A stretch of 64,000 bases of DNA from a virus: IMG/VR virus record IMGVR_UViG_3300013104_000004, positions 19,484 to 83,483 of that record; one strand, written 5' to 3'. The first letter of the stretch is position 1, and each line of letters starts with the position of its first letter. Shown here piece by piece: positions 3,279-61,305 of the stretch. Both the position numbers and the translations under genes were made by a program. Under the pieces are notes generated by a model. The model saw only the letters and a program-made list of their open reading frames with translations. It did not search any database and had not been told where the DNA came from.

Positions 3279-3733
3279 CCACTGGAACCGGCGTCGGGAC
3301 CGCGACGCGCCACGACGTGAAGGCCGCGAGTGTCGTCGGCGAGGTGCTCTTCACGCTCCGCAACGAGGCTGGCCGGCTGGCGGAGGCCCTGCGCCCTCAC
3401 GTCGAGGCGGCCCAGCAGTACCTCGACCATCTGGAAGAGCTCGCGGCAGTCGCGGAAGGCGCCGCCGAGCTCTTCGACGCATCCGCCTACAGCGACCGAG
3501 AGTTCGGGCAGGCGTTCGTCCCAGCGGAGTCAGGGCTGATCCGGCCGGACAGGCCGAACGGTGGCCGCAGACCCGAGGCGGAAGTCGTTGACGAGGTCGA
3601 GCGCGCGCGCGAGGCCGGCCGGCGTGCGATCAAGGTGCATGAGGCGATCCCGTACAACCACAAGCTGACGGACAACGAGATCCGCGAGCACGTCGGCCGC
3701 GCTGCACTGGGGATCGAGGCCACCGATGCCTGA
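3275..3733 (+). CDS. hypothetical protein
   Basis: GTGA coupling; codon bias. Confidence 0.7.
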   Translation: MTTGTGVGTATRHDVKAASVVGEVLFTLRNEAGRLAEALRPHVEAAQQYLDHLEELAAVAEGAAELFDASAYSDREFGQAFVPAESGLIRPDRPNGGRRPEAEVVDEVERAREAGRRAIKVHEAIPYNHKLTDNEIREHVGRAALGIEATDA

Positions 3734-4341: not shown

Positions 4342-4667
4342 CCGAGCTTTCGACGGAGGCGCCGAGCACGCTTGATGCGGCGCTCGCGTACGCCCGGCGC
4401 TACTGGCAGTTCGGGCAGGAGCCCGAGACCCAGGCGGCGCTGACGGTGCTGCTCCAGCACATCGAGCGCGAGCAGAGTGCCGCGGACGAGTGGGGCGTCA
4501 TGTGGCAGACGTGGGCCACCGCCGACGGCAGCCCCCATGACATTTGCCGCTCGCGCGAGATCGCCGAGCATGTAGCAGCGGCCGATCGGCACGCCACGGG
4601 CATCCCGGGCGTCGTCATGCACCGCACGGTCACCCGCTGGCGCCCCGCGGCGAAGGAGGGGCGATGA
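4335..4667 (+). CDS. hypothetical protein
   Basis: GGAGG RBS; coupled to neighbours. Confidence 0.65.
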   Translation: MVTELSTEAPSTLDAALAYARRYWQFGQEPETQAALTVLLQHIEREQSAADEWGVMWQTWATADGSPHDICRSREIAEHVAAADRHATGIPGVVMHRTVTRWRPAAKEGR

Positions 4668-5835: not shown

Positions 5836-7239
5836 TCAGGGTGCGAGGCGAACCCAGATCGGCGAGTACGCGACCTCGAAGTACGGCACCTGGCGCACGG
5901 CGTTCGCCGCCGCGACGAAGCGCATCTGGCGGTGCTCCTCGGTGGTGTTGACGTCCGCAGGGAACGGGTACATCGAGACCGCCAGGCCGATCTCCGAGCC
6001 GAGGTCGCCCCGGGCTACGGCATGCGGGGGGTATGCGCCGGCCAGCGAGACCGGGAAGTGCCCATAGGTGTTCCCCACAGTCGCAGCGCGCATCGAACTC
6101 TCGGGCACAGCGACCACCCCGGCCGGCTTCGTGGCCCAGGTGACCGTCGCCGGGTCCCAGCCGGCGGGGTCCAGGCCGTAGATCCGCAGGCTCGTGCTGC
6201 CGTCGCTGTACTGGTCCTCGTTTCGGTACAAGCGCAGCGTCAGGGCGGACGGGTACAGCTGGCTCACCGCAGGGATCGCAGCGCGCAGCAGCAGGATGCT
6301 CATCGCGAGATAGCCGGCCTCCCCCTTCGCCGTCGGCGGCACCCGCACGAACCACGTCGGATCCGCCGAAGTGTTCGACGCGGGCGCGTCGGGATCAATG
6401 ACCGAGCCGGCCGCCAACACCTTCGACGCGACACCGCCCGCGGAGGCCGTCGTCGGATTTGGAATGGGCCCCGGCGCCCACGACGCCGCAGCTGGCGCGT
6501 CGACCGTCGCGGCGTACAGGACGCCCTGGTACGAGACGAGCGACCCCTTGGAATAGGGGGCGCCAGGCGCCCACGGCCCCTCGAAGTGCAGCCCGGACTC
6601 TCCAGGGGGCCCCTGGGGACCGGCCGCTCCGCGCGGCCCATCTGCGCCATCGGCCCCCCGCGGGCCCGCCGCCAGCGCCCCCATGCTCACCCAGCCGGAG
6701 GTCGACATCACCCACATCTCGGCGCCGACGACATACGCGTCGTTGGTCGGCGCTCCTGCCGGCAGGTCGGCCTGCGAGCTCAGCTGGCCGCGGAACGCGA
6801 ACGAGGTCCCGTTCACGCCATCCGCGCCGGCCGGGCCTCGGGGGCCATCCGCGCCGGCCGGGCCTTCTGGACCCTCAGGGCCCGGGTCGCCCTGCGGCCC
6901 CTGAGGGCCGTCCGCGCCCTGCAGCGGCGGGAGCGCGAGCCAGCCGCTGTCCAGGGTCCACACCATCGCGCCCGTGTCGCGCAGGTACGCGTCCCCAGGC
7001 GTGGCGTCCGTAGGTAGCGCCGCCGGCGAGTCAATGCGCCCGCGCAGCGTCACGCCACCGACGCCAGCCGGCCCCGGCTCGCCCCGTGCGCCCTCCGGCC
7101 CGCGAGGCCCTTCGGGGCCGACGCCGTACCGCGCCTCGTACTCACCCTCGCTGCCGGGGGTCCACAAGGCGTTCTGGTAGATGACGGGACCCGACGCTTC
7201 GGCGGGCAGCTCGGCAACTACAGGCAGGTGTCTCGGCAT
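5836..7239 (-). CDS. collagen-like tail fibre / minor tail protein with C-terminal DNRLRE(CBM96)-like domain
   Basis: Gly-X-Y runs; repeated 'LRGxxxSxAxLP...DAY' modules; C-terminal 'LTLRLY...WDPATVTWATKP'. Confidence 0.8.
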   Translation of the reverse strand: MPRHLPVVAELPAEASGPVIYQNALWTPGSEGEYEARYGVGPEGPRGPEGARGEPGPAGVGGVTLRGRIDSPAALPTDATPGDAYLRDTGAMVWTLDSGWLALPPLQGADGPQGPQGDPGPEGPEGPAGADGPRGPAGADGVNGTSFAFRGQLSSQADLPAGAPTNDAYVVGAEMWVMSTSGWVSMGALAAGPRGADGADGPRGAAGPQGPPGESGLHFEGPWAPGAPYSKGSLVSYQGVLYAATVDAPAAASWAPGPIPNPTTASAGGVASKVLAAGSVIDPDAPASNTSADPTWFVRVPPTAKGEAGYLAMSILLLRAAIPAVSQLYPSALTLRLYRNEDQYSDGSTSLRIYGLDPAGWDPATVTWATKPAGVVAVPESSMRAATVGNTYGHFPVSLAGAYPPHAVARGDLGSEIGLAVSMYPFPADVNTTEEHRQMRFVAAANAVRQVPYFEVAYSPIWVRLAP

Positions 7240-16093: not shown

Positions 16094-17230
16094 TCAGCGC
16101 GCCATGCGTGCCCGGAGTGCGGCCAGCGTGTCGCGCGCGGCGTCCGCCTTGACGCGCTCCGGCGCCTTGCGGGTGGCGGCGCGACGGGCGCCGGTGCCGT
16201 TGCTCGCAGCCAGCACGTAGGACCCGCCGACAGCGGGACCCGCCAGGCGCTCCGGGCTGACAGTGTGCCCGTGCGAGAGAGACACGCGCCGGAGTGCGTC
16301 CCGCTGTCCGTCGGCGCCGATGCCCTGCCCGGAGCCGAGGCCGCGCGTCATGGCGGTAGCGACAGCGGACCGGTACAGCCCTGAGGTGAGGTGCGGGACC
16401 GGGCGCGCGGCAGGCGGGCAGGGGACCGGACCCGCCAGCACGTGCACGGGCTGATATCCGAGCGCGTACGGGTACCCGTTGCTGTCAGTGAGCTCGGGGG
16501 ACCGGCGCCCGATGGCACGCACCCCCGGGCGCTGTCCGTCCCGCACGGACTGGCGCCACGTGCGGACCATGGCGCGCGCCGGGCGCTCCGCCAGTCCGTC
16601 GCGGTCCCGCTGTCCGCCAGCGCTGACGACGACAGCGCCGCGCCGGATGACGCGGCCTGCGTAGGTGTGCGCCACGGTCCGCACGTCGGCGGGCGCGTCG
16701 TCAGCGGCCAGCACGTCCGCCACGGGCGCGCCGACAGCGGCCAGCGCGACGGCCAGCGCGTCCCGCACGTCCGCCACGGTCCGCGTGTCGTCGGCGCCAG
16801 TGAGCGCCCGTGCGAGGCGCGTCGCGACGACGCGGCCGGACGCGCTCACCACGTCAACGATCGGCGCATGCGTGCCACGGGCAGGTACGTCGTCGCACGT
16901 GCGGCCGTCGCTGTCGCGCGACCCCAGAACGGCCGACAGCACGAGTGCCGTGGTGATATCCGGGCACGCGGCACGGGCGGCGCGGATACCGTCGGCGACA
17001 GCGTCCGCCAGCGTGTGCGGCGCCGCCACGGGCGCGGCGCCCGCCATGGCGTGCAACGTCTCCAACGGGACCGCGATCTCACGCGTACCCGTCGCGTCCC
17101 GCATGGCGCCGGTCACGGCTCCGTGTGCGTCGGGCTCCGCCCGGATGCCAGTCACGGCCGTCAGCGCGGATTCAAGCGCGGCGCCCGTCAGCGTCGCGAT
17201 GTGGTCCCAATCAATCGTCAGCGTGTGCAT
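16094..17230 (-). CDS. hypothetical protein with atypical composition (no Phe; TCGA-free DNA)
   Basis: GGGAG RBS; 378 aa; has its own terminator. Confidence 0.65.
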   Translation of the reverse strand: MHTLTIDWDHIATLTGAALESALTAVTGIRAEPDAHGAVTGAMRDATGTREIAVPLETLHAMAGAAPVAAPHTLADAVADGIRAARAACPDITTALVLSAVLGSRDSDGRTCDDVPARGTHAPIVDVVSASGRVVATRLARALTGADDTRTVADVRDALAVALAAVGAPVADVLAADDAPADVRTVAHTYAGRVIRRGAVVVSAGGQRDRDGLAERPARAMVRTWRQSVRDGQRPGVRAIGRRSPELTDSNGYPYALGYQPVHVLAGPVPCPPAARPVPHLTSGLYRSAVATAMTRGLGSGQGIGADGQRDALRRVSLSHGHTVSPERLAGPAVGGSYVLAASNGTGARRAATRKAPERVKADAARDTLAALRARMAR

Positions 17231-17490
17231 TGTGTCTCCCTAGTCTGGGCGCCCGTGTGGCGCCGCACTCATTCTGTCGGAATGTGCGCGGCGTTGCTTA
17301 ACAGTGAGCGGCGCGATTGTTTGCGCCGCTCGAAAGGCACGCAACGAACCGTGCCACCGACTTGCCTACGAGCTCGAAGCACAAACGAGCGCCCGCCGGC
17401 CTGCCTGCACGCCGGCGCACGCACACACGCTTCAGGGGCTCCAGTGGTGAGTTTTTCGGCCCTGCCAGTAGTGCGCCCGACTTCGGGCGC

Positions 17491-17581
17491 CGAAACGGTG
17501 CGCCGATTGCTTAGAGATGAGGCACGGTGCACGGCGACGACGACAACGTCGAAACGGTGCGCGAGTTGCTTAGAGATGAGG
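17491..17581 (+). repeat. tandem 32-bp direct repeat (candidate duplicated promoter)
   Basis: CGAAACGGTGCGCnnnTTGCTTAGAGATGAGG at 17491-17522 and 17550-17581. Confidence 0.75.
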
Positions 17582-17618
17582 GCGCCGCACGGTGCGGCGC
17601 ACGACGAGCGGAGACGAC

Positions 17619-17771
17619 ATGGACTTCGAGACCTACGAGCGGCGCCTGCGTGCGCTGCACGTCCAGGTGGGACGCGGCTTTCTGACGCCGGATGAGGCGT
17701 TCATGGAGGCACACGAGATCGCCGCCGAGTTCTGGATCCAGGCGATGACGCCGGTGGAGGTGCCCGCATGA
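17619..17771 (+). CDS. small hypothetical protein, first gene of the early + operon
   Basis: GGAG RBS; MDFETYERRLRAL... Confidence 0.65.
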   Translation: MDFETYERRLRALHVQVGRGFLTPDEAFMEAHEIAAEFWIQAMTPVEVPA

Positions 17772-17899
17772 CGTGGCACCCGCTTGACCTGCCAGCTCAC
17801 CTCCAGCTCCCCGCCGAGGCGCCTCCCGCGCCGCCGGTGACGTTCCACGACGACCCGTGGCAGCACGACCCCGACCGCGCAACGCGGCGCGGGTTCTGA
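17768..17899 (+). CDS. small hypothetical protein
   Basis: GGAGG RBS; ATGA coupling. Confidence 0.5.
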   Translation: MTWHPLDLPAHLQLPAEAPPAPPVTFHDDPWQHDPDRATRRGF

Positions 17900-17920
17900 G
17901 GCCGCTGCTGACTAGACGCT

Positions 17921-17970
17921 CTGCATGCACACCGACCAGCTCGGGGCGCGTGTTGTCCGCCTAGTCGGAC
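17921..17970 (+). promoter_or_regulatory. two-hairpin RNA element, copy 1
   Basis: CTGCAT-hairpin-TGT, one unpaired T, then a GTCCG/CGGAC hairpin; co-varies with copy 2. Confidence 0.55.
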
Positions 17971-17990
17971 TGAATGACGCCTGCTAGAGC

Positions 17991-18456
17991 TCCCGCTCAC
18001 AGCTTCCGGCGCCTTTCTCACCGGAAGTTGCTTGTAGGTGAGAGGTGGCGCCGCGAAACGTGGGGAAGCGATCCGCGGCGCCATCTTCCAGTCTTCCCGA
18101 AAGAGTCATTCTTCCGGGCGCAATCCGTGAAAATCGACCCCACCGAAAGGAGGTAGGAAATGCCCTTCTTCCAGCACGCCGCCATATTACCGTGGCCGCT
18201 GCACACCTGATCGACAGATCCCGCAGCCCCGCGGGGGTGAGTGACAGGAATGTGCCCAGCCGGCCAAAACCAGGCACGACCGAGAAAGCGGCATCCGACT
18301 CAGCCGCACGGACTCGCCGGAGTTCCGGCCCATTGGGGAAGGGCGAATCGAACCGGCAACAGTTGACCAGCGCTGTAGACCACCCGTGCATCCCGGCACG
18401 GGCCCAAGGCTGGCACCGGGTAAGCCCCCTGCCGGTCAAGCACCTACAGAGCGGGA
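17991..18456 (+). ncRNA. candidate large structured ncRNA (~470 nt)
   Basis: long-range helices 17991-17998/18449-18456 and 18033-18040/18441-18448; more than 10 nested stems; GNRA loops; no long codon-biased ORF. Confidence 0.7.
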
Positions 18457-18557
18457 CGACGTGAGGCCTGCGAGCACCAGTAGCGCTGCTGGTGCTGAGC
18501 CTGGCTGACCTCCTCGTCCGACGCAGAGACCTAGCGAACCAGCACGGCGCTGACGTT

Positions 18558-18618
18558 CTGCATCCACCCCGACCTTCCGAGCTCGGGGTGGGTGTTGTTC
18601 GGCAGCCCCTGTCCGAAC
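18558..18618 (+). promoter_or_regulatory. two-hairpin RNA element, copy 2
   Basis: GCATCCACCCCGA/TCGGGGTGGGTGT, one unpaired T, then GTTCGG/CCGAAC. Confidence 0.55.
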
Positions 18619-18650
18619 CACCCGAACGACACCTAGAGAGTGAGCACCCC

Positions 18651-18758
18651 ATGCGTGACGACAAGCGCAAGGCCAAGCAGGAGCAGACCCGCCGGAACTT
18701 CGAGCGGACGATGAAGACGAAGCCCTACGTGGGCGCCGCCTCCACCGTCGAGATCTGA
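18651..18758 (+). CDS. small basic peptide
   Basis: MRDDKRKAKQEQTRRNFERTMK...; next gene starts 2 nt later. Confidence 0.55.
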   Translation: MRDDKRKAKQEQTRRNFERTMKTKPYVGAASTVEI

Positions 18759-18760
18759 CC

Positions 18761-19009
18761 ATGGTCACCCTCGACAAGTCGCCCGCCATCCTCCAGGTCC
18801 GGGTCGACGTGCCCTTCACCTACACGCTCACCGCCGGTCACTCGATCGTCGAGGCGTTCCTGGACCTGGACGAGTCCGACCAGCGTGCGGTCCTGCGCGG
18901 CGCGGCCATCGCCGTGCTCACCGGGCCGGAGGTTGACCTTCCGGGCCTGCTGGCGAAGATCAACGAGCAGGCCACGTGGGCCCGACTCGGGATCGGCGTG
19001 CCGCGGTGA
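18761..19009 (+). CDS. hypothetical protein
   Basis: codon bias; part of the operon. Confidence 0.7.
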   Translation: MVTLDKSPAILQVRVDVPFTYTLTAGHSIVEAFLDLDESDQRAVLRGAAIAVLTGPEVDLPGLLAKINEQATWARLGIGVPR

Positions 19010-19311
19010 GCGTCAGCCTGGCCAAGCGCCCGGTCATCCAGGGCCTGCTCTGGGTGTGCGACGACTGCCTCTTCGCCCGTGAGGGTGACGGGACCGAGGA
19101 CCCGCACTGCGAGCCCTGGAACCGTGAGCCCGACACGGACGTGACGCTCGGCGTCGCCTACGGCCATGACGGCTGTGAGCACTCGCCCTACGCGGACGAC
19201 TACGACGAGCACTCCGAGTCCTGCGAGATGCACACCTTCTCGTCCCGGTCCTGCGACGGCTGCGGCTGCCACCTGGCCGGCACGCGTCACGCCTACACCT
19301 GGTGGGCGTGA
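19006..19311 (+). CDS. Cys-rich hypothetical protein
   Basis: CDDC...FSSRSCDGCGCHLAGTRH. Confidence 0.75.
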   Translation: MSVSLAKRPVIQGLLWVCDDCLFAREGDGTEDPHCEPWNREPDTDVTLGVAYGHDGCEHSPYADDYDEHSESCEMHTFSSRSCDGCGCHLAGTRHAYTWWA

Positions 19312-58094: not shown

Positions 58095-58562
58095 TCAGCT
58101 CCCGAATCCAGTCGTGCGCGGCGCCAGCAGCTGCGCCTGAGTCGCGACCTCGTCGCCGAGATCCTTGTAGGCCTGCCCGAGGAACATCAGGTGGTGCTGC
58201 ACCTTCACCGCCGGGGGAGAGGCGAGCGTCCCGTTCCGTGACTCGATCTGCACCCAGAGCGAGACCCACGCGCCGGTGTAGTGGCCCTTCACGTTGCGCT
58301 TCCACTGCCAGACGCTCGCGCCGGCCGCCGGCGGCAGCCAGGGCTCATCCGGCATGTTCAAGATCGCCGACCCGGACAGCAGGGCAGGTGCCTCCGTGAA
58401 CACGACATCGAACGAGAACGCCTTCGTCTGCTTGAAGTAGCCGACGCCCGTCGAGGTCTGCCTGTGCACCGAGAACGCCAAGCGCGCCGCGTTGTCCCGC
58501 TGCGTCTCACGCCGCGCGGTGCGCGCCTCCTGCGCCTGAAGCAGGTCAAAGAACCCGAACAT
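58095..58562 (-). CDS. tail-associated hypothetical protein
   Basis: coupled within the tail operon. Confidence 0.7.
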   Translation of the reverse strand: MFGFFDLLQAQEARTARRETQRDNAARLAFSVHRQTSTGVGYFKQTKAFSFDVVFTEAPALLSGSAILNMPDEPWLPPAAGASVWQWKRNVKGHYTGAWVSLWVQIESRNGTLASPPAVKVQHHLMFLGQAYKDLGDEVATQAQLLAPRTTGFGS

Positions 58563-60868
58563 CAGATCTCCTTCCCTGCCCGCGAGAACTCGACGCCTCC
58601 CTGGAGGGCATCGACCGCCTGGAGTGTGTTCGAGGTCAGCGAGGACTTATCGAACGCCCACGCCCCGTCGGGGTCGTCGCCAAGCCAGTGGGTCTGCAGC
58701 GTGTACGTCCACTGGCCGCTGTCCGCCGAGTTCGACGAGCTGATGCCGCTCACGTAGTGGTAGTAGCCCTCCGACGTCACCTGCTCGAAGACGCGCACCT
58801 GGTCGTCGATCTGGATGGCGGGGTGCGCGGGGATGCTGAGCCGGTCCTGGCGGTAGCGGAACATCTGGCGCACGGCGATGAGGTCGGCCGTGACCGTCGC
58901 CTCCTCCACCGAGGCGAAGTGCTGGTCCGTCCAGCCACCCACCCGGCGCAACCCGGTGTCGTTCGGGTTGTAGCCCGGCACCATGGCGGCGAACTTGCCC
59001 ACCGGGTTGGCCACGAAGATGCCCTCGCGGACGTTCGTCGACTGCAGGCTCGTGCTCAGGTCGAGCAGCGTGCGGGACTCGTCGATCGTGATCGCCGCGG
59101 TGGTGCGACCTGGCTTCGACGACAGCCCGCCGATCCAGTTGCCGCGGTCCCAGATGTTCGGCAGCCGCCACTGGGCCGCCCCCGTCTCGTCGAACCAGAA
59201 GTTGAAGCCGATGGCCTCGGCGACGTAGCGCACCCCGTCCATCAGGCTCTTCTGGTCGAACGCCGACGCCGCGATCTCCTCGACGGGCGCCGTGCCCGTG
59301 GCCTGGAAGTCCCCCCACACGCGCCCCGGCACACCCTTGCCGAGCACGTGGTCCACCGTCGCCGGGGAGCACGCGCGCTTCGTCCCGTCGCTGTGCCACA
59401 GGTAGCCGCCGCGCGGCCAGTACAGCCCGGCCCACGCGCAGAACAGCTTGATGATGTCGGTGTAGTCCTCGCACCGGCCAGGGTTCGACCCGGCCGGCCC
59501 TGCCTTCAGGCCGACCTGGCTGGACTCCGTGACCGTCTTCTTCACGGTCTTCGTCGTCGGGCCCCACAGCTCGACCTCGCGGATGCCAGCGCGGTACTTC
59601 TGGCCAGGCAGGCCGAAGCTCGGCAGGTTGCCAAGCCACAGCCGGACCATCGTGACGTTCTTGCGGGTGCCGAGCTTGATGACGTGCTCGCCCTCCCCGC
59701 TCAGCCCGCCCTTGTAGGCGACGTACGGCACGCCCTCCTCGTACTTGCCGCGCCCGTCGCGGTGGTAGGGCATCGAGCGGCCATCCACCCACTCGCCGCC
59801 GACCTTCAGCGACACGAAGGCGTTGTACCCGTCCTTGACCGTGCGGAACCGAACCTCCGAGATCGTGCCCTTCACGCCGATGTCCACGTACTCGAACGCG
59901 CTGCGGTACGACGCCCTCGCGTTGCCGACGGACAGGAAGTACGTCGAGCGCTTCCCGTCGAACGCATCCTTCGAGGAGTGCCCGTAGACCTTCGCGCCCA
60001 CGTACGCGCTCTCGGGCCACAGGTCGTTGCCCGAGCCCTCGTGCCAGATCTTCAGGCGGTCCACCGCCTTGACGGTGGCCTTCTCCTTGTGGCGCTCGGC
60101 CACCGTCACCTTGTCCGACCAGTCCCTGAACGTCACCGGGTGGAAGTCGTCCGGGACCACGGGCAGCATGCTCTGGTGGTCGAGCAGCAGCCTGCCCGGG
60201 TCACGACCCGAGATGGTGATGCGCCCCAGGGCCGACAGATCGATCTTGTCGATGAGCCACAGGCCCGTCTGCAGGACCTTCGAGTCGCGCTCCGGCGGGA
60301 CGTAACCGGGCGCGCCGATGGCCACGTCATCCGGGTTGTCCGACCCCCAGCCCTCGTACGTGCGCATGAGGTTGTCAGGCATCAGCAGGCCCGTGTACGG
60401 GTTCTGGTGGTGGTCCCAGCGGGTCGAGAAGGGCGACGTGCCGCGGCCCGGGCTCAGGAAGCCCGGGTTGTCGATGCCGCGCTTGCCGCGCGCCGCGGTG
60501 ATCGACGAGGCCACGTTGTTCCAGAGCTCCACCGTCACCGAGGCCGTGTCGACGTCCGTGCTGCGCGACCACGAGACCGAGATGACGTTCGGCAGCTCCA
60601 GAGGTGCCGCCGGCGAGGTGAACAGGAAGTCGGCGTAGGTGTTCGTCACCCGCTCGCCGTGGTTCGGATCGATGCCCGTCGGGTACGGGTTGAAGGACGT
60701 CACGTCCTCCCCGTAGACCGCCGGCACCCGCTTGAACGTCGTCATCAGCTCGAAGGCGTCCAGCCGCATCTTCGGGCGCTGGAGCGTGACCCGGCGCGTC
60801 GCCTTGCGGGGGCCCGTGAAGTCCCCGTTCTGCCAGACCGTGTCGAAGTACTTCGGCACCTCGCGCAT
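58562..60868 (-). CDS. large minor tail / baseplate hub (Tal-like) protein with F5/8-type insert
   Basis: second gene after the tape measure; DAFDGKRSTYF; C-terminal IPAHPAIQIDDQV. Confidence 0.7.
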   Translation of the reverse strand: MREVPKYFDTVWQNGDFTGPRKATRRVTLQRPKMRLDAFELMTTFKRVPAVYGEDVTSFNPYPTGIDPNHGERVTNTYADFLFTSPAAPLELPNVISVSWSRSTDVDTASVTVELWNNVASSITAARGKRGIDNPGFLSPGRGTSPFSTRWDHHQNPYTGLLMPDNLMRTYEGWGSDNPDDVAIGAPGYVPPERDSKVLQTGLWLIDKIDLSALGRITISGRDPGRLLLDHQSMLPVVPDDFHPVTFRDWSDKVTVAERHKEKATVKAVDRLKIWHEGSGNDLWPESAYVGAKVYGHSSKDAFDGKRSTYFLSVGNARASYRSAFEYVDIGVKGTISEVRFRTVKDGYNAFVSLKVGGEWVDGRSMPYHRDGRGKYEEGVPYVAYKGGLSGEGEHVIKLGTRKNVTMVRLWLGNLPSFGLPGQKYRAGIREVELWGPTTKTVKKTVTESSQVGLKAGPAGSNPGRCEDYTDIIKLFCAWAGLYWPRGGYLWHSDGTKRACSPATVDHVLGKGVPGRVWGDFQATGTAPVEEIAASAFDQKSLMDGVRYVAEAIGFNFWFDETGAAQWRLPNIWDRGNWIGGLSSKPGRTTAAITIDESRTLLDLSTSLQSTNVREGIFVANPVGKFAAMVPGYNPNDTGLRRVGGWTDQHFASVEEATVTADLIAVRQMFRYRQDRLSIPAHPAIQIDDQVRVFEQVTSEGYYHYVSGISSSNSADSGQWTYTLQTHWLGDDPDGAWAFDKSSLTSNTLQAVDALQGGVEFSRAGKEI

Positions 60869-61305
60869 CAGGCCGGACCTCCGTCGCCAACAGTCGGGGC
60901 AGACACCGCGAGGACCAGCGCGGTGATCGTGTACTCGTGCGACCAGTAGCGGCCGACCTTCGCCTTGCCGTTCGGCGGCTCCGCCTTGAACGCCTTCAGC
61001 ACCACCGTCAGCCGGCGCCCGAAGTGATCCCAGACGTAGATGCGACCCGACGGGCGGTCCAGCACCCACGAGCGCAGCGCCTCGTAGTGGGCGGCGTTCT
61101 TCGTCGTGCCGGTGAACGTCCACTGCTGGGGCATCTGCGCGCCCTCCCACAGCACCACCAGACCGCCGACCGCCACCGTGCCCTGCGTCGTGATCGCCTT
61201 CTCCGGGAACGGCGAGCTCATCGCGCGCGGGTTCCACGGGAACGTGTAGGCACCTGCCGACGATGGATCCGCCGGGTCATCGAAGCGCCAGCGCAGCACG
61301 GCCAT
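60868..61305 (-). CDS. distal tail-like protein
   Basis: directly downstream of the tape measure; YTFPWNP. Confidence 0.6.
   Translation of the reverse strand: MAVLRWRFDDPADPSSAGAYTFPWNPRAMSSPFPEKAITTQGTVAVGGLVVLWEGAQMPQQWTFTGTTKNAAHYEALRSWVLDRPSGRIYVWDHFGRRLTVVLKAFKAEPPNGKAKVGRYWSHEYTITALVLAVSAPTVGDGGPA

Follow-up and report, generated by a model that had tools for sequence, protein, structure and literature searches.

The gap of some 750 bp between two small genes of this phage is non-coding, and we tentatively suggest, with rather less than even confidence, that it represents a self-contained plus-strand non-coding RNA module that is neither a gene nor a leader tied to one gene. From sequence comparison, a homologous module is present in one other phage and the plus strand is preferred, and in the modeled folds a conserved 3′ stem-loop competes with the long-range helix P1. 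A new plus-strand RNA module with a putative extent and fold is plausible; its size, shape, and job are unproven, because only the last ~100 bases are common with the sole relative. All positions refer to the window, that is, the whole 64-kb stretch of DNA that was analyzed.

The gene-free gap and its surroundings

A sequence-only reading of the window had described a ~750-bp gap in an otherwise stop/start-coupled operon, and both parts of this description are correct: the genes next to the gap are coupled in this way, and 17900–18650 contains no called gene and lacks GC3 periodicity, whereas the flanking genes have 0.85–0.97 GC at third positions. Its further description as the head of an early operon, in which "early" is putative, is roughly right by position, as the plus-strand block starts at ~17600 with two small genes before the gap. 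ORFs of 139 aa (plus strand) and 230 aa (minus strand) span the gap. None of five gap ORFs that were looked up is present as a called protein in a collection of 15 billion proteins, whereas P0001, P0002, and P0003, small genes beside the gap, are. A homolog search with the 230-aa ORF gave no match, and the 139-aa ORF gave one marginal match (E 6.8e-4) among 1.84 billion representatives and none in a PHROG search. A hidden gene was rejected on these grounds, namely the absent periodicity, the absence of called ORFs and of a PHROG match, and the single marginal E-value. Of the two sequencing runs recorded for this DNA, neither of them RNA, one is its likely source and the other carries an identical 151-nt piece; no variants were seen.

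The region had also been said to show no hallmark of tmRNA, RNase P, or group I/II introns, and in agreement with this, the whole 64-kb window gave no match at the gathering cut-off to the 4227 families of Rfam 15, a set that covers tmRNA, RNase P, group I/II introns, 6S, GOLLD, ROOL, HEARO, and riboswitches. For 17700–18800, four matches were obtained at E≤10, the best with 20.4 bits against a cut-off of 69, and ARAGORN detected no tRNA or tmRNA genes in the window. The features discussed below are compiled in Table 1.

Table 1. Positions of features in and around the gap (window coordinates)
Feature	Position	Strand	Description
Gene-free gap	17900–18650	+	Between a 43-aa gene (17768–17899) and the 35-aa gene P0001 (18651–18758)
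Element B1	17923–17989	+	Hairpin GCATGCACACCGA/TCGGGGCGCGTGT (17923–53), one T, hairpin GTCCG/CGGAC (17955–70), then CTAGAG (17984–89)
Closed domain of the sequence-only reading (MFE and helix probabilities)	17991–18456	+	P1 17991–98/18449–56, P2 18001–09/18021–29, P3 18033–40/18441–48, P4 18042–55/18074–87, multibranch interior
TTGCTT-N5-TGAG motif, fourth of five copies	18026–18042	+	Its N5-TG part forms the 5′ strand of P3
Shine–Dalgarno (SD) sequence and mini-ORF	18146–18210	+	SD AAAGGAGGT (18146–54), 6-nt spacer, 16-codon ORF MPFFQHAAILPWPLHT (18160–18210) with ATA-TTA at codons 9–10
Conserved 3′ element	18428–18530	+	Sole part alignable with G001 (L064 3964–4066); 62 of 105 columns invariant
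Blocks in the 3′ element	18428–18530	+	CAAGCACCT, GCGGGACGACGTGAGRCC, GCCTGGC, TGACC, TCGTCCRACGC
Conserved invariant stem (RNAalifold prediction)	18451–59/18514–23	+	GCGGGACGA/TCGTCC..CGC
Hairpin GCACCAG/CTGGTGC	18474–18495	+	Within the conserved stem; G001 has GCGTGCG/CGCATGC at the same place
Element B2	18560–18638	+	13-bp hairpin 18560–72/18583–95, one T, hairpin GTTCGG/CCGAAC (18597–18618), then CTAGAG (18633–38)

Repeated motifs crowd this region. Copies of the B element with the shared flanking pattern occur only twice in the whole genome (≤4 mismatches), B1 being a direct repeat with 18580–18601 at 86% (family D16), and B2 ends 12 nt before the ATG of P0001. From B1 to B2, both bases differ in two pairs (hairpin 1, G-C to C-G; hairpin 2, C-G to U-A), and these compensatory differences argue for selection on pairing. 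The 83-kb genome contains the motif TTGCTT-N5-TGAG five times, always on the plus strand (17294, 17507, 17566, 18028, and 20918), with no further copy on either strand, and the relative G001 has five copies of CTAGA-N2-3-GTGA[AG]G (five to seven copies of the motif), mostly followed by GCA; the distance of the two motifs to a start codon varies from 2 to ~80 nt. In 17000–19200, a consensus scan detected no sigma-70-like promoter, and terminator-like sites were not above chance (two found versus 0.9 expected), neither of them being B1 or B2. If CTAGAG or TTGCTT-N5-TGAG were a promoter, its position would place the 5′ strands of P1 and/or P3 upstream of the transcript start.

Predicted fold and conserved 3′ element

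All complementary segments that the sequence-only reading had named are present in the DNA where it placed them: TCCCGCTC (17991–98) and TGTAGGTG (18033–40) are complementary to the contiguous CACCTACA-GAGCGGGA (18441–56), and the interior pairs include AGCTTCCGG/CCGGAAGTT, GAGGTGGCGCCGCG/CGCGGCGCCATCTT, GCGGC/GCCGC, GCCGG/CCGGC, and CCCGTGC/GCACGGG. As to the ten nested helices that had been drawn from them, seven are strongly predicted (P1, P2, P3, P4, GCGGC, GCCGG, and CCCGTGC, with ensemble probabilities of 0.60–1.00 over six choices of ends), whereas GTCATTC/GAGTGAC, GTGCC/GGCAC, and TTGACC/GGTCAA have a probability of 0.00 because competing pairings win. P2 (9 bp) and P4 (14 bp) are both very stable in the predicted ensemble. 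Of the proposed tetraloops, only GACA is closed by a stem in the MFE structure (GAUC/GAUC, 4 bp); GAAA occurs three times, each time without a closing stem of three or more pairs. The complementarity of CTTTCTC (18013–19) to GAGAAAG (18282–88), proposed as a possible pseudoknot, is present; a 7-nt match is expected by chance somewhere among ~12 loops, by a rough estimate rather than a computed test. GACA is a GNNA and not a GNRA sequence.

The MFE of −212.4 kcal/mol on the plus strand corresponds to a z of −4.79, with none of 100 shuffles as good, and the minus strand gave a z of −3.49. A background of 16 other 478-nt windows of the same genome, analyzed on both strands with 20 shuffles each, ranged from z +2.15 to −4.69, and 1 of the 32 window-strands was thus about as extreme. 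The window-strand that reached −4.69 lies inside a coding region. A Watson–Crick helix of 8+8 pairs with one contiguous strand, as formed by P1 and P3, occurred in 83 of 3000 dinucleotide shuffles (2.8%) of the 751-nt region, a figure that is post hoc. A chance origin of the fold is only partly excluded.

The sole relative across all searches was G001, an 80.9-kb IMG/VR phage whose genome is colinear with that of the window phage and whose primase-helicase is 53% identical. The proteins of the two phages are 50–70% identical, yet most of the gap cannot be aligned, neither a core of ~330 nt nor the 5′ ~430 nt. G001 keeps a gene-free stretch of ~0.9 kb that is placed differently among its genes: its module follows the P0004 homolog and precedes an unrelated 49-codon ORF, whereas the module of the window phage lies before P0001, P0002, and P0004. 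The G001 gap without GC3-high ORFs comprises L064 3521–4558, with the 49-codon ORF read from 4410; it opens with a CTAGA..GGTGAG motif and includes the aligned block. G001 lacks counterparts of P2 and P4 and has a positional counterpart of P3 in which three positions are changed yet paired, with a probability of 0.00 in the G001 ensemble once flanks are included. Conversely, the most striking G001 helix (17 bp, 3955–71/4073–89) has no counterpart in the window, and Rfam covariance models gave no match on the loci of the relative. G001 also contains a 34-nt tandem repeat in two copies with AT-rich palindromes, of which the window has no copies.

The domain 17991–18456 as originally drawn is therefore not the conserved unit, as only 18428–18530 aligns with the relative, and this element overruns the 3′ end of the domain. 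Homologs that conserve an ORF rather than helices had been named as evidence against an RNA; the sole homologous stretch conserves nucleotides and not an ORF, and a 1-nt indel puts CAAGCACCT into one reading frame in the window phage and into another in G001. Within the 3′ element, four of the seven pairs of the hairpin at 18474–18495 differ from G001 yet stay paired (three changed on both sides, one on one side), and the predicted probability of this hairpin is 1.00 in the ensemble of the window phage and 0.88–0.97 in that of G001. The alignment of the element, with two sequences, gave an SCI of 0.61 and an alifold z of −2.44, which 5 of 300 column shuffles equaled or bettered, and the 193-column alignment of the same two sequences gave a z of −2.63, again with 5 of 300 shuffles as good. 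Over the 193 alignable columns, 13 of 40 predicted pairs are changed on both sides, two sequences being too few for a proper covariation test. The plus strand is favored because several helices, namely P2, P4, the P3 counterpart of G001, and the hairpin of G001, contain G.U pairs that would be C.A in the opposite strand. P1 draws on bases of the conserved stem GCGGGACGA/UCGUCC..CGC, and the two are thus predicted to compete; the stem has a probability of 0.95 if the RNA starts at 18044. The block AGCGCT(G/A)TAG is predicted in different structures in the two phages, as could be expected of a DNA site no less than of an RNA.

Searches for further relatives covered several collections. In blastn and megablast searches of 50,697 phage records, neither the window region nor the G001 region had a relative, and blastn against 72,556 plasmids gave none. 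In IMG/VR, the exact pattern TTGCTTAGAGATGAG occurred at 54 loci, none above 60% G+C, GGGACGACGTGAGRCC occurred at 15 loci of which G001 alone was related, and AAGCACC..CGGGACGA occurred at at least 120 loci, with none similar by nhmmer among the matches listed, which did not include the match of G001 itself; a gapped pattern in GTDB genomes gave at least 120 loci, with none similar among the matches listed. Four IMG/VR loci sharing GGGACGACGTGAGGCC were rejected as an unrelated conserved junction. For 21 loci encoding relatives of P0004, nhmmer and blastn returned only one 33-nt match, to L064. Two of the P0004 relatives P0007–P0018 are nearer to P0004 than the G001 copy, namely P0009, on a 44.5-kb Logan contig, and P0007, on a 10.9-kb JGI contig. 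Covariance model R1, run on 27 sources, matched 23 times at E≤10, with significant scores for the training loci only. At the protein level, a homolog search with P0002 gave no match; the primase-helicase and a 119-aa protein had no close relative in IMG/VR and led to no phage record, the matches of the 119-aa protein all being below 42% identity and in Mycobacterium, Gordonia, and Rhodococcus phages; and a conserved 891-aa protein was matched in G001 only, with none in Actinomycetes genomes (5, then 401 searched). The longest complementarity of the RNA to other phage transcripts was 15 nt, about chance level, and a literature search gave no description of the gap RNA or its motifs.

Readings of the gap

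Transcription of the module, its ends and timing, and any switch or target are what we infer from this layout. B1 and B2 would bracket the module, each with terminator-like hairpins and, after them, a start or regulatory site, and the RNA would extend over ~0.5–0.6 kb from ~17990 to the B2 hairpin near 18600, or start at ~18045 if the TTGCTT-N5-TGAG copy at 18026–42 is a start signal. Its functional core may be the 3′ element, with the invariant stem around the pairing-preserving hairpin, and the upstream ~430 nt would be lineage-specific and well folded on paper, with P2, P4, and several hairpins. As GAGCGGGA may pair instead with the far 5′ end, with P1 stacked on P3, two mutually exclusive folds can be envisaged: a closed fold that would hide the 18026–42 motif copy and half of the conserved 3′ element, and an open fold that would form the conserved 3′ stem. 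Our working guess is an early regulatory RNA that acts via its 3′ element, with the choice between closed and open fold as the switch.

The strongest competitor, in our view rather unlikely yet of real weight, is that there is no functional large RNA, and that the gap is a cluster of DNA control sites (promoters, operators, and terminator hairpins) with drifting spacer, in which the long helices arise by chance in 66% G+C and the 3′ block is a terminator or a site of protein binding. The crowded one-orientation motifs, which also precede genes, fit this reading (the five TTGCTT-N5-TGAG copies, the two B elements, and the five CTAGA-N2-3-GTGA[AG]G copies of G001), as do the failure of most of the gap to align between phages with such similar proteins, a fold z that is not unique in the genome, a closing helix that recurs in shuffles, three helices at zero probability, and the palindrome of AGCGCT(G/A)TAG, which in G001 lies within the 34-nt tandem repeat. 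However, phage genomes are compact, yet both phages keep ~0.75–0.9 kb gene-free; the structure signal of the 3′ block is above that of column shuffles, and its hairpin changes sequence and keeps its pairs; the G.U pairs are consistent with one strand; and P2 and P4 are long and very stable. It is very improbable that the gap is a protein gene, decayed or unrecognized, or a DNA element, for example an origin of replication. The two long ORFs cover the gap, G001 has its tandem repeat with AT-rich palindromes, and the start of P0001 (CCATGCGTGACGAC) resembles CCATGCGGGACGAC in the conserved block of G001 and AGAGCGGGACGAC in the window and therefore hints at a duplicated gene start; however, coding periodicity is absent, homologs are absent bar the one marginal match, at 70% G+C chance alone should give long ORFs, the two phages read the conserved block in different frames, the repeat has two copies in G001 and none in the window, and the replication genes are ~28 kb off.

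A cis-acting leader is unlikely in our estimate, with a modest chance of being right: ribosomes would start at AAAGGAGGT, translate 18160–18210, and stall at AUA-UUA when rare tRNAs are scarce, and the refolded RNA would set the flow past B2 into P0001, P0002, and P0004, so that the phage would read the physiological state of its host. The SD matches 9 nt of the complement of the anti-SD sequence at 6 nt from the ATG, and in the 63 confident ORFs (17,053 codons) ATA is used 0 times and TTA twice, which makes them the rarest and the joint second-rarest sense codon of this phage; the remaining 14 codons of the mini-ORF are common ones with G or C at the third position. Among 21 SD-led short ORFs (6–40 codons) genome-wide, the mini-ORF is the sole one with codons used five times or less. 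It combines a short ORF, a ribosome-binding site, and tandem rare codons, as the leader of an attenuator does. In the MFE structure, the SD pairs with codons 3–4 and the rare codons lie within a hairpin, and therefore a ribosome would remodel the fold. Against the leader, the mini-ORF has no counterpart at the homologous place in G001, where a strong SD precedes a 4-codon ORF and the tandem repeat contains two ATG-AGC-GCT-ATA starts, each behind a weak SD; short ORFs with SD and start number ~20 per genome and lie mostly within genes (21 in the window phage, 22 in G001); the mini-ORF sits in local hairpins with no terminator near, and the 350 nt from its end to the next strong hairpin, that of B2 at 18560, are a long way for an attenuator of the classical type; the two phages have different genes downstream; and ATATTA may be just an AT-rich patch of non-coding DNA. 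The RNA module and the leader could also be joined in one picture, which we consider highly doubtful: a large early RNA class of soil actinophages with a closed (P1+P3)/open (3′ stem-loop) switch thrown by ribosomes that stall on the AUA-UUA mini-ORF, by which the phage reads the rare-tRNA supply (bldA-type) to set early expression. If, instead of the RNA module that we favor, the gap holds no RNA, the locus still maps dense repeated control motifs common to two otherwise orphan phages.

Comparison with known systems

Actinophages carry one-orientation intergenic motifs, such as the cluster A stoperators and the start-associated sequences of cluster K mycobacteriophages. The motifs described here are likewise short, asymmetric, one-orientation repeats, intergenic, on one genome arm, and often beside hairpins; however, their sequences differ, their start-codon distance varies as given above, and they are putative promoters, operators, or RNA sites. 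The put site of HK022 is a two-hairpin antitermination RNA, and phage early operons carry intergenic processing or terminator hairpins. B1 and B2 share with put the two stem-loops split by a single unpaired base, a T, on the transcribed strand; they differ in that they flank a large RNA rather than being it, and the likeness described here is one of layout. The same pattern would be seen in a DNA cruciform or in hairpins that terminate or process a transcript.

Classical attenuators exert leader-peptide control by rare or regulatory codons, and the UUA tRNA of Streptomyces, the product of bldA, depends on growth phase. As precedents for a rare-codon leader, a UUA-containing upstream ORF precedes Streptomyces adpA, and a UUA-based host-stage sensor is reported to have been proposed for a Streptomyces phage (PMC10732093). 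The idea of such sensing is not known to have been raised for any other phage. The gap resembles these systems in that a strong ribosome-binding site leads a very short ORF with tandem AUA-UUA, and in the structured RNA upstream of genes; it differs in that no terminator/antiterminator pair overlapping the mini-ORF can be defined, in the distance of the mini-ORF from the next strong hairpin, and in its absence from G001. Through the rare-codon reading, the sensing of host tRNA supply by phages of high-G+C hosts would become directly testable.

The GOLLD and ROOL families are associated with tRNAs, and we know of no large phage-borne non-coding RNA with a known function. GOLLD and ROOL are large ornate RNAs that are often phage- or prophage-borne, as set out in two accounts (10.1101/2024.12.08.627333, PMC5737381). 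The gap differs from both in that it has no covariance-model match to either or to any of the Rfam families, in that no tRNA genes lie near it, and in that its RNA has two known members with most of the body not conserved between them. It resembles them in comprising several hundred nucleotides without an ORF, in being phage-borne, in its predicted multi-helix fold, and in that its function, like theirs, is unknown. If real, the RNA would place an actinophage among the few phages known to carry a large non-coding RNA, with a testable layout that consists of a conserved 3′ stem-loop, a competing long-range pairing, and a rare-codon mini-ORF.

The phage, the gap and one true relative

The window represents bases 19484–83483 of a complete 83,483-bp IMG/VR record with direct terminal repeats. 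Its G+C content is ~70%, and a C5 DNA methylase, a primase-helicase, a tyrosine integrase and a MoxR ATPase are recognizable among its genes. Weak protein matches link it to phages of Mycobacterium, Gordonia and Rhodococcus, and the host is therefore probably an actinobacterium. The whole tested stretch (17600–19300) is present in one sequencing run only, a rhizosphere metagenome. Genes to the left of ~17230 point leftward, a rightward block begins at ~17600, and the gene-free gap that the sequence-only reading had claimed within this block is real: no frame preference is seen across 17900–18370, whereas the flanking genes have a third-position G+C of 0.85–0.97. The locus belongs to no described RNA family, as had been suspected, since Rfam 15 gave no match at gathering level in the whole window, the best of four matches at relaxed thresholds (17700–18800) reached 20.4 bits (cut-off 69), and ARAGORN reported neither a tRNA nor a tmRNA.

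Coordinates of the features in and around the gap (window coordinates unless L064, a locus of the relative G001, is named)
Feature	Position	Strand	Description
Two small coupled genes	ATG 17619 to 17771; 17768–17899	+	open the rightward block
Genes 3′ of the gap, in order	18651–18758 (P0001); P0002; P0004	+	
Family A	17294, 17507, 17566, 18028, 20918	+	TTGCTT-N5-TGAG; five copies, none elsewhere in the 83-kb genome
Family B (B1; B2)	17923–89; 18560–18638	+	long hairpin, one T, second hairpin, CTAGAG
CTAGA motif of G001	L064 175, 1401, 1526, 1887, 2510	+	CTAGA-N2-3-GTGA[AG]G, mostly then GCA; upstream of early genes
Helices P1; P2; P3; P4	17991–98/18449–56; 18001–09/18021–29; 18033–40/18441–48; 18042–55/18074–87	+	drawn in the sequence-only reading
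Conserved 3′ element	18428–18530; L064 3964–4066	+	blocks CAAGCACCT; GCGGGACGACGTGAG(G/A)CC; GCCTGGC; TGACC; TCGTCC(G/A)ACGC
Mini-ORF	18146–54 (Shine-Dalgarno); stop 18208–10	+	AAAGGAGGT, 6 nt, ATG, 16 codons (MPFFQHAAILPWPLHT), stop

The window's phage has almost no known kin: searches of 50,697 phage records and 72,556 plasmids gave no match to the gap or the sequence around it, and no homolog of P0002 was found. P0004 has 13 relatives, whose alignment retrieved 21 loci, and one of these, L064, sits in an 80,879-bp IMG/VR record (G001, 97% complete). G001 is a true relative, because the primase-helicases are 53% identical, the genomes are colinear by tblastx, and an 891-aa protein without a Pfam domain (window 58562–61237, minus strand; locus L215 12644–15142), the best-conserved between both phages, shares 67% identity. 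No relative of this protein beyond G001 was found in IMG/VR or 406 Actinomycetes genomes. Other relatives were found neither among the matches listed in IMG/VR and GTDB pattern scans nor by a covariance model. Four IMG/VR loci (L080, L082, L085, L088) share a ~60-nt segment containing GGGACGACGTGAGGCC, at which two different upstream sequences meet a common low-G+C downstream sequence; this arrangement resembles a junction of the attachment or recombination type. The four viral contigs are otherwise unrelated, and the loci were rejected as relatives of the putative gap RNA.

The conserved 3′ element and the proposed large domain

G001 has a long gene-free stretch of its own (L064 3521 to ~4410), preceded by the P0004 homolog plus two more genes and bordered on the 3′ side by an unrelated 49-codon ORF, whereas the gap of the window lies 5′ of P0001, P0002 and P0004; homologs of the window's two small pre-gap genes lie, in our reading, ~1.7 kb further upstream in G001. 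With such differing neighbours, the non-coding stretch acts like a module independent of any single adjoining gene. The alignable sequence is confined to its 3′ part, where 62 of 105 columns are invariant. A 1-nt indel lies between the CAAGCACCT and GCGGGACGACGTGAG blocks, and the frame of CAAGCACCT thus differs between the phages, which argues for conservation at the nucleotide level and not of an ORF. RNAalifold predicts an invariant stem, GCGGGACGA/UCGUCC..CGC, with an enclosed hairpin, GCACCAG/CUGGUGC in the window and GCGUGCG/CGCAUGC in G001, in which four of seven pairs differ and are still paired. The consensus energy has a z of −2.44 against column shuffles (5/300 as good, SCI 0.61), and of −2.63 in a 193-column version of the alignment. 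A predicted structure in this element thus receives modest support from two sequences, and the comparison backs a conserved 3′ stem-loop. The start of P0001 (18651), CCATGCGTGACGAC, resembles a conserved block (CCATGCGGGACGAC at L064 3983, AGAGCGGGACGAC at window 18449) and may reflect a duplicated gene start at the 3′ border of the module, or common GAC-rich sequence.

The sequence-only reading had drawn a ~470-nt multi-domain RNA (17991–18456) that is closed by P1 and P3. All complementary segments that it listed were found in place; P1, P2, P3, P4 (a 14-bp hairpin), GCGGC/GCCGC, GCCGG/CCGGC and CCCGTGC/GCACGGG reached ensemble probabilities of 0.60–1.00 over six choices of transcript ends, whereas GTCATTC/GAGTGAC, GTGCC/GGCAC and TTGACC/GGTCAA remained at 0.00. 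Among the tetraloops, the GACA loop is stem-closed in the MFE structure, but no other is, and the 7-nt loop pseudoknot can be formed by the sequence but by a rough estimate is not beyond chance. The 478-nt stretch folds with a z of −4.79 on the plus strand (0/100 dinucleotide shuffles as good) and of −3.49 on the minus strand. Sixteen other 478-nt windows of the same genome, each on both strands, ranged from +2.15 to −4.69, with 1 of 32 as extreme; this one (record positions 5900–6377, plus strand, before the window's start; z −4.69, 20 shuffles) lies inside a 494-aa minus-strand gene. The closure, in which 16 contiguous bases face two 8-mers flanking a hairpin, was picked post hoc, and when the 751-nt region was shuffled 3000 times it arose in 83 cases. 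In view of this background, the closure in shuffles and the pseudoknot within chance, the thermodynamic evidence is suggestive, not decisive.

The conserved element overruns the drawn 3′ end by 75 nt, and its stem and P1 are mutually exclusive, as both use GCGGGA, the 3′ strand of P1: P1 wins in the window when the 5′ end is included (0.60–0.99), and the conserved stem has a probability of 0.95 when the RNA starts at 18044. P3 (UGUAGGUG/CACCUACA) has a positional counterpart in G001, GGGAGGUG (3659–66)/CACCUUUC (3976–83), with three pairs changed yet kept, two as G.U, but AGGUG and CACCU belong to conserved motifs in which they do not vary, and in each of the three extra pairs a G faces a pyrimidine. 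As this counterpart has a probability of 0.00 in G001 with flanks included, P1 has a weak counterpart only, P2 and P4 lack one altogether, and the ~330-nt interior cannot be aligned with G001, the comparison gives the architecture as drawn no support, and the modeled large closed domain is unproven. Conversely, a 17-bp helix around the conserved block of G001 has no counterpart in the window.

Repeated motifs around the gap

Four of the five family A copies have a G+C-rich hairpin directly 3′ (P4, in our reading, is the one that follows the 18028 copy), and most have one on the 5′ side too. The 18028 copy is also the source of P3's 5′ strand, and the two best copies (17488–17522 and 17547–17581) constitute a 35-nt direct repeat, 59 nt apart. 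With these flanking hairpins and copies on the plus strand only, family A may serve as a promoter, as an operator or as a site on the RNA. B1 and B2, which flank the gap, differ by two double, pair-preserving changes. Family B could combine terminator-like hairpins with a start or control site behind them, and the gap would then be its own transcription unit; a consensus scan detected no sigma-70-type promoter, and neither B1 nor B2 was among its terminator calls. Variants of the G001 CTAGA motif mark the head of that phage's gene-free stretch, at 3651, and its tail, at 4355. Three copies of the motif have CGGTGCCCG exactly 31 nt upstream, resulting in a ~60-nt composite control element, and the CTAGAGAGTGAG form is identical to window 18633–44. 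Should these repeated motifs act as promoters, the transcript would lack the 5′ strand of P1, of P3 or of both.

Smaller elements were also seen. A hairpin with tail (CCCGACTTCGGGCGCCGAAACGGTG) is 88% identical between window 17476–17500 and L064 1552–1576 (E 0.003) and lies on opposite sides of the control motif in the two phages. At L064 3861–3928, a 34-nt hairpin unit (GCGGAGC..GCTCCGC) is tandemly duplicated; its AT-rich core contains two palindromes, AGCGCT and GCTATAGC. Both copies of the unit carry a weak Shine-Dalgarno sequence and an ATG that is followed by the very rare codon ATA, and the window keeps only AGCGCTGTAG (18369–78). On the minus strand, the Shine-Dalgarno region of the mini-ORF (18138–18158) resembles a terminator, with a 7-bp hairpin and then TCGATTTTCA; such sites are not above chance in the region (2 found, 0.9 expected).

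Interpretation of the gap

We tentatively favour, at somewhat less than even confidence, a self-contained non-coding RNA module encoded on the plus strand; its conserved part, the 3′ stem-loop element, would probably also be the functional one. The repeated motifs and the recurrence of the closure in shuffles would also suit DNA control sites that merely cluster here, with helices that arose by chance. We consider this somewhat less probable, the pair-preserving differences of the enclosed hairpin being more in keeping with an RNA. That the gap hides a gene or an origin is very unlikely. As to a gene, none of five gap ORFs looked up is a called protein, whereas the flanking mini-genes are called, a 230-aa minus-strand ORF has no homolog, and a 139-aa plus-strand ORF has no PHROG match and a single marginal match (E 6.8e-4) among 1.84 billion representatives.

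It is also improbable, though less so, that the gap is a leader with a translated rare-codon mini-ORF. In this mini-ORF, 14 codons are of common types with G or C in third position. The other two, codons 9 (ATA) and 10 (TTA), are very rare: across 63 confident ORFs of this phage (17,053 codons), ATA occurs 0 times and TTA twice. The mini-ORF is the sole carrier of such rare codons among the 21 Shine-Dalgarno-led short ORFs of the genome. Its Shine-Dalgarno sequence pairs with codons 3–4 in the MFE structure, and by sequence it looks like a stalling leader peptide. However, short ORFs with Shine-Dalgarno and start arise ~20 times per genome, the mini-ORF is not conserved in G001, and the next strong hairpin is 350 nt away. 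Published precedents are a UUA-bearing upstream ORF ahead of adpA and the UUA sensor proposed for a Streptomyces phage (PMC10732093).
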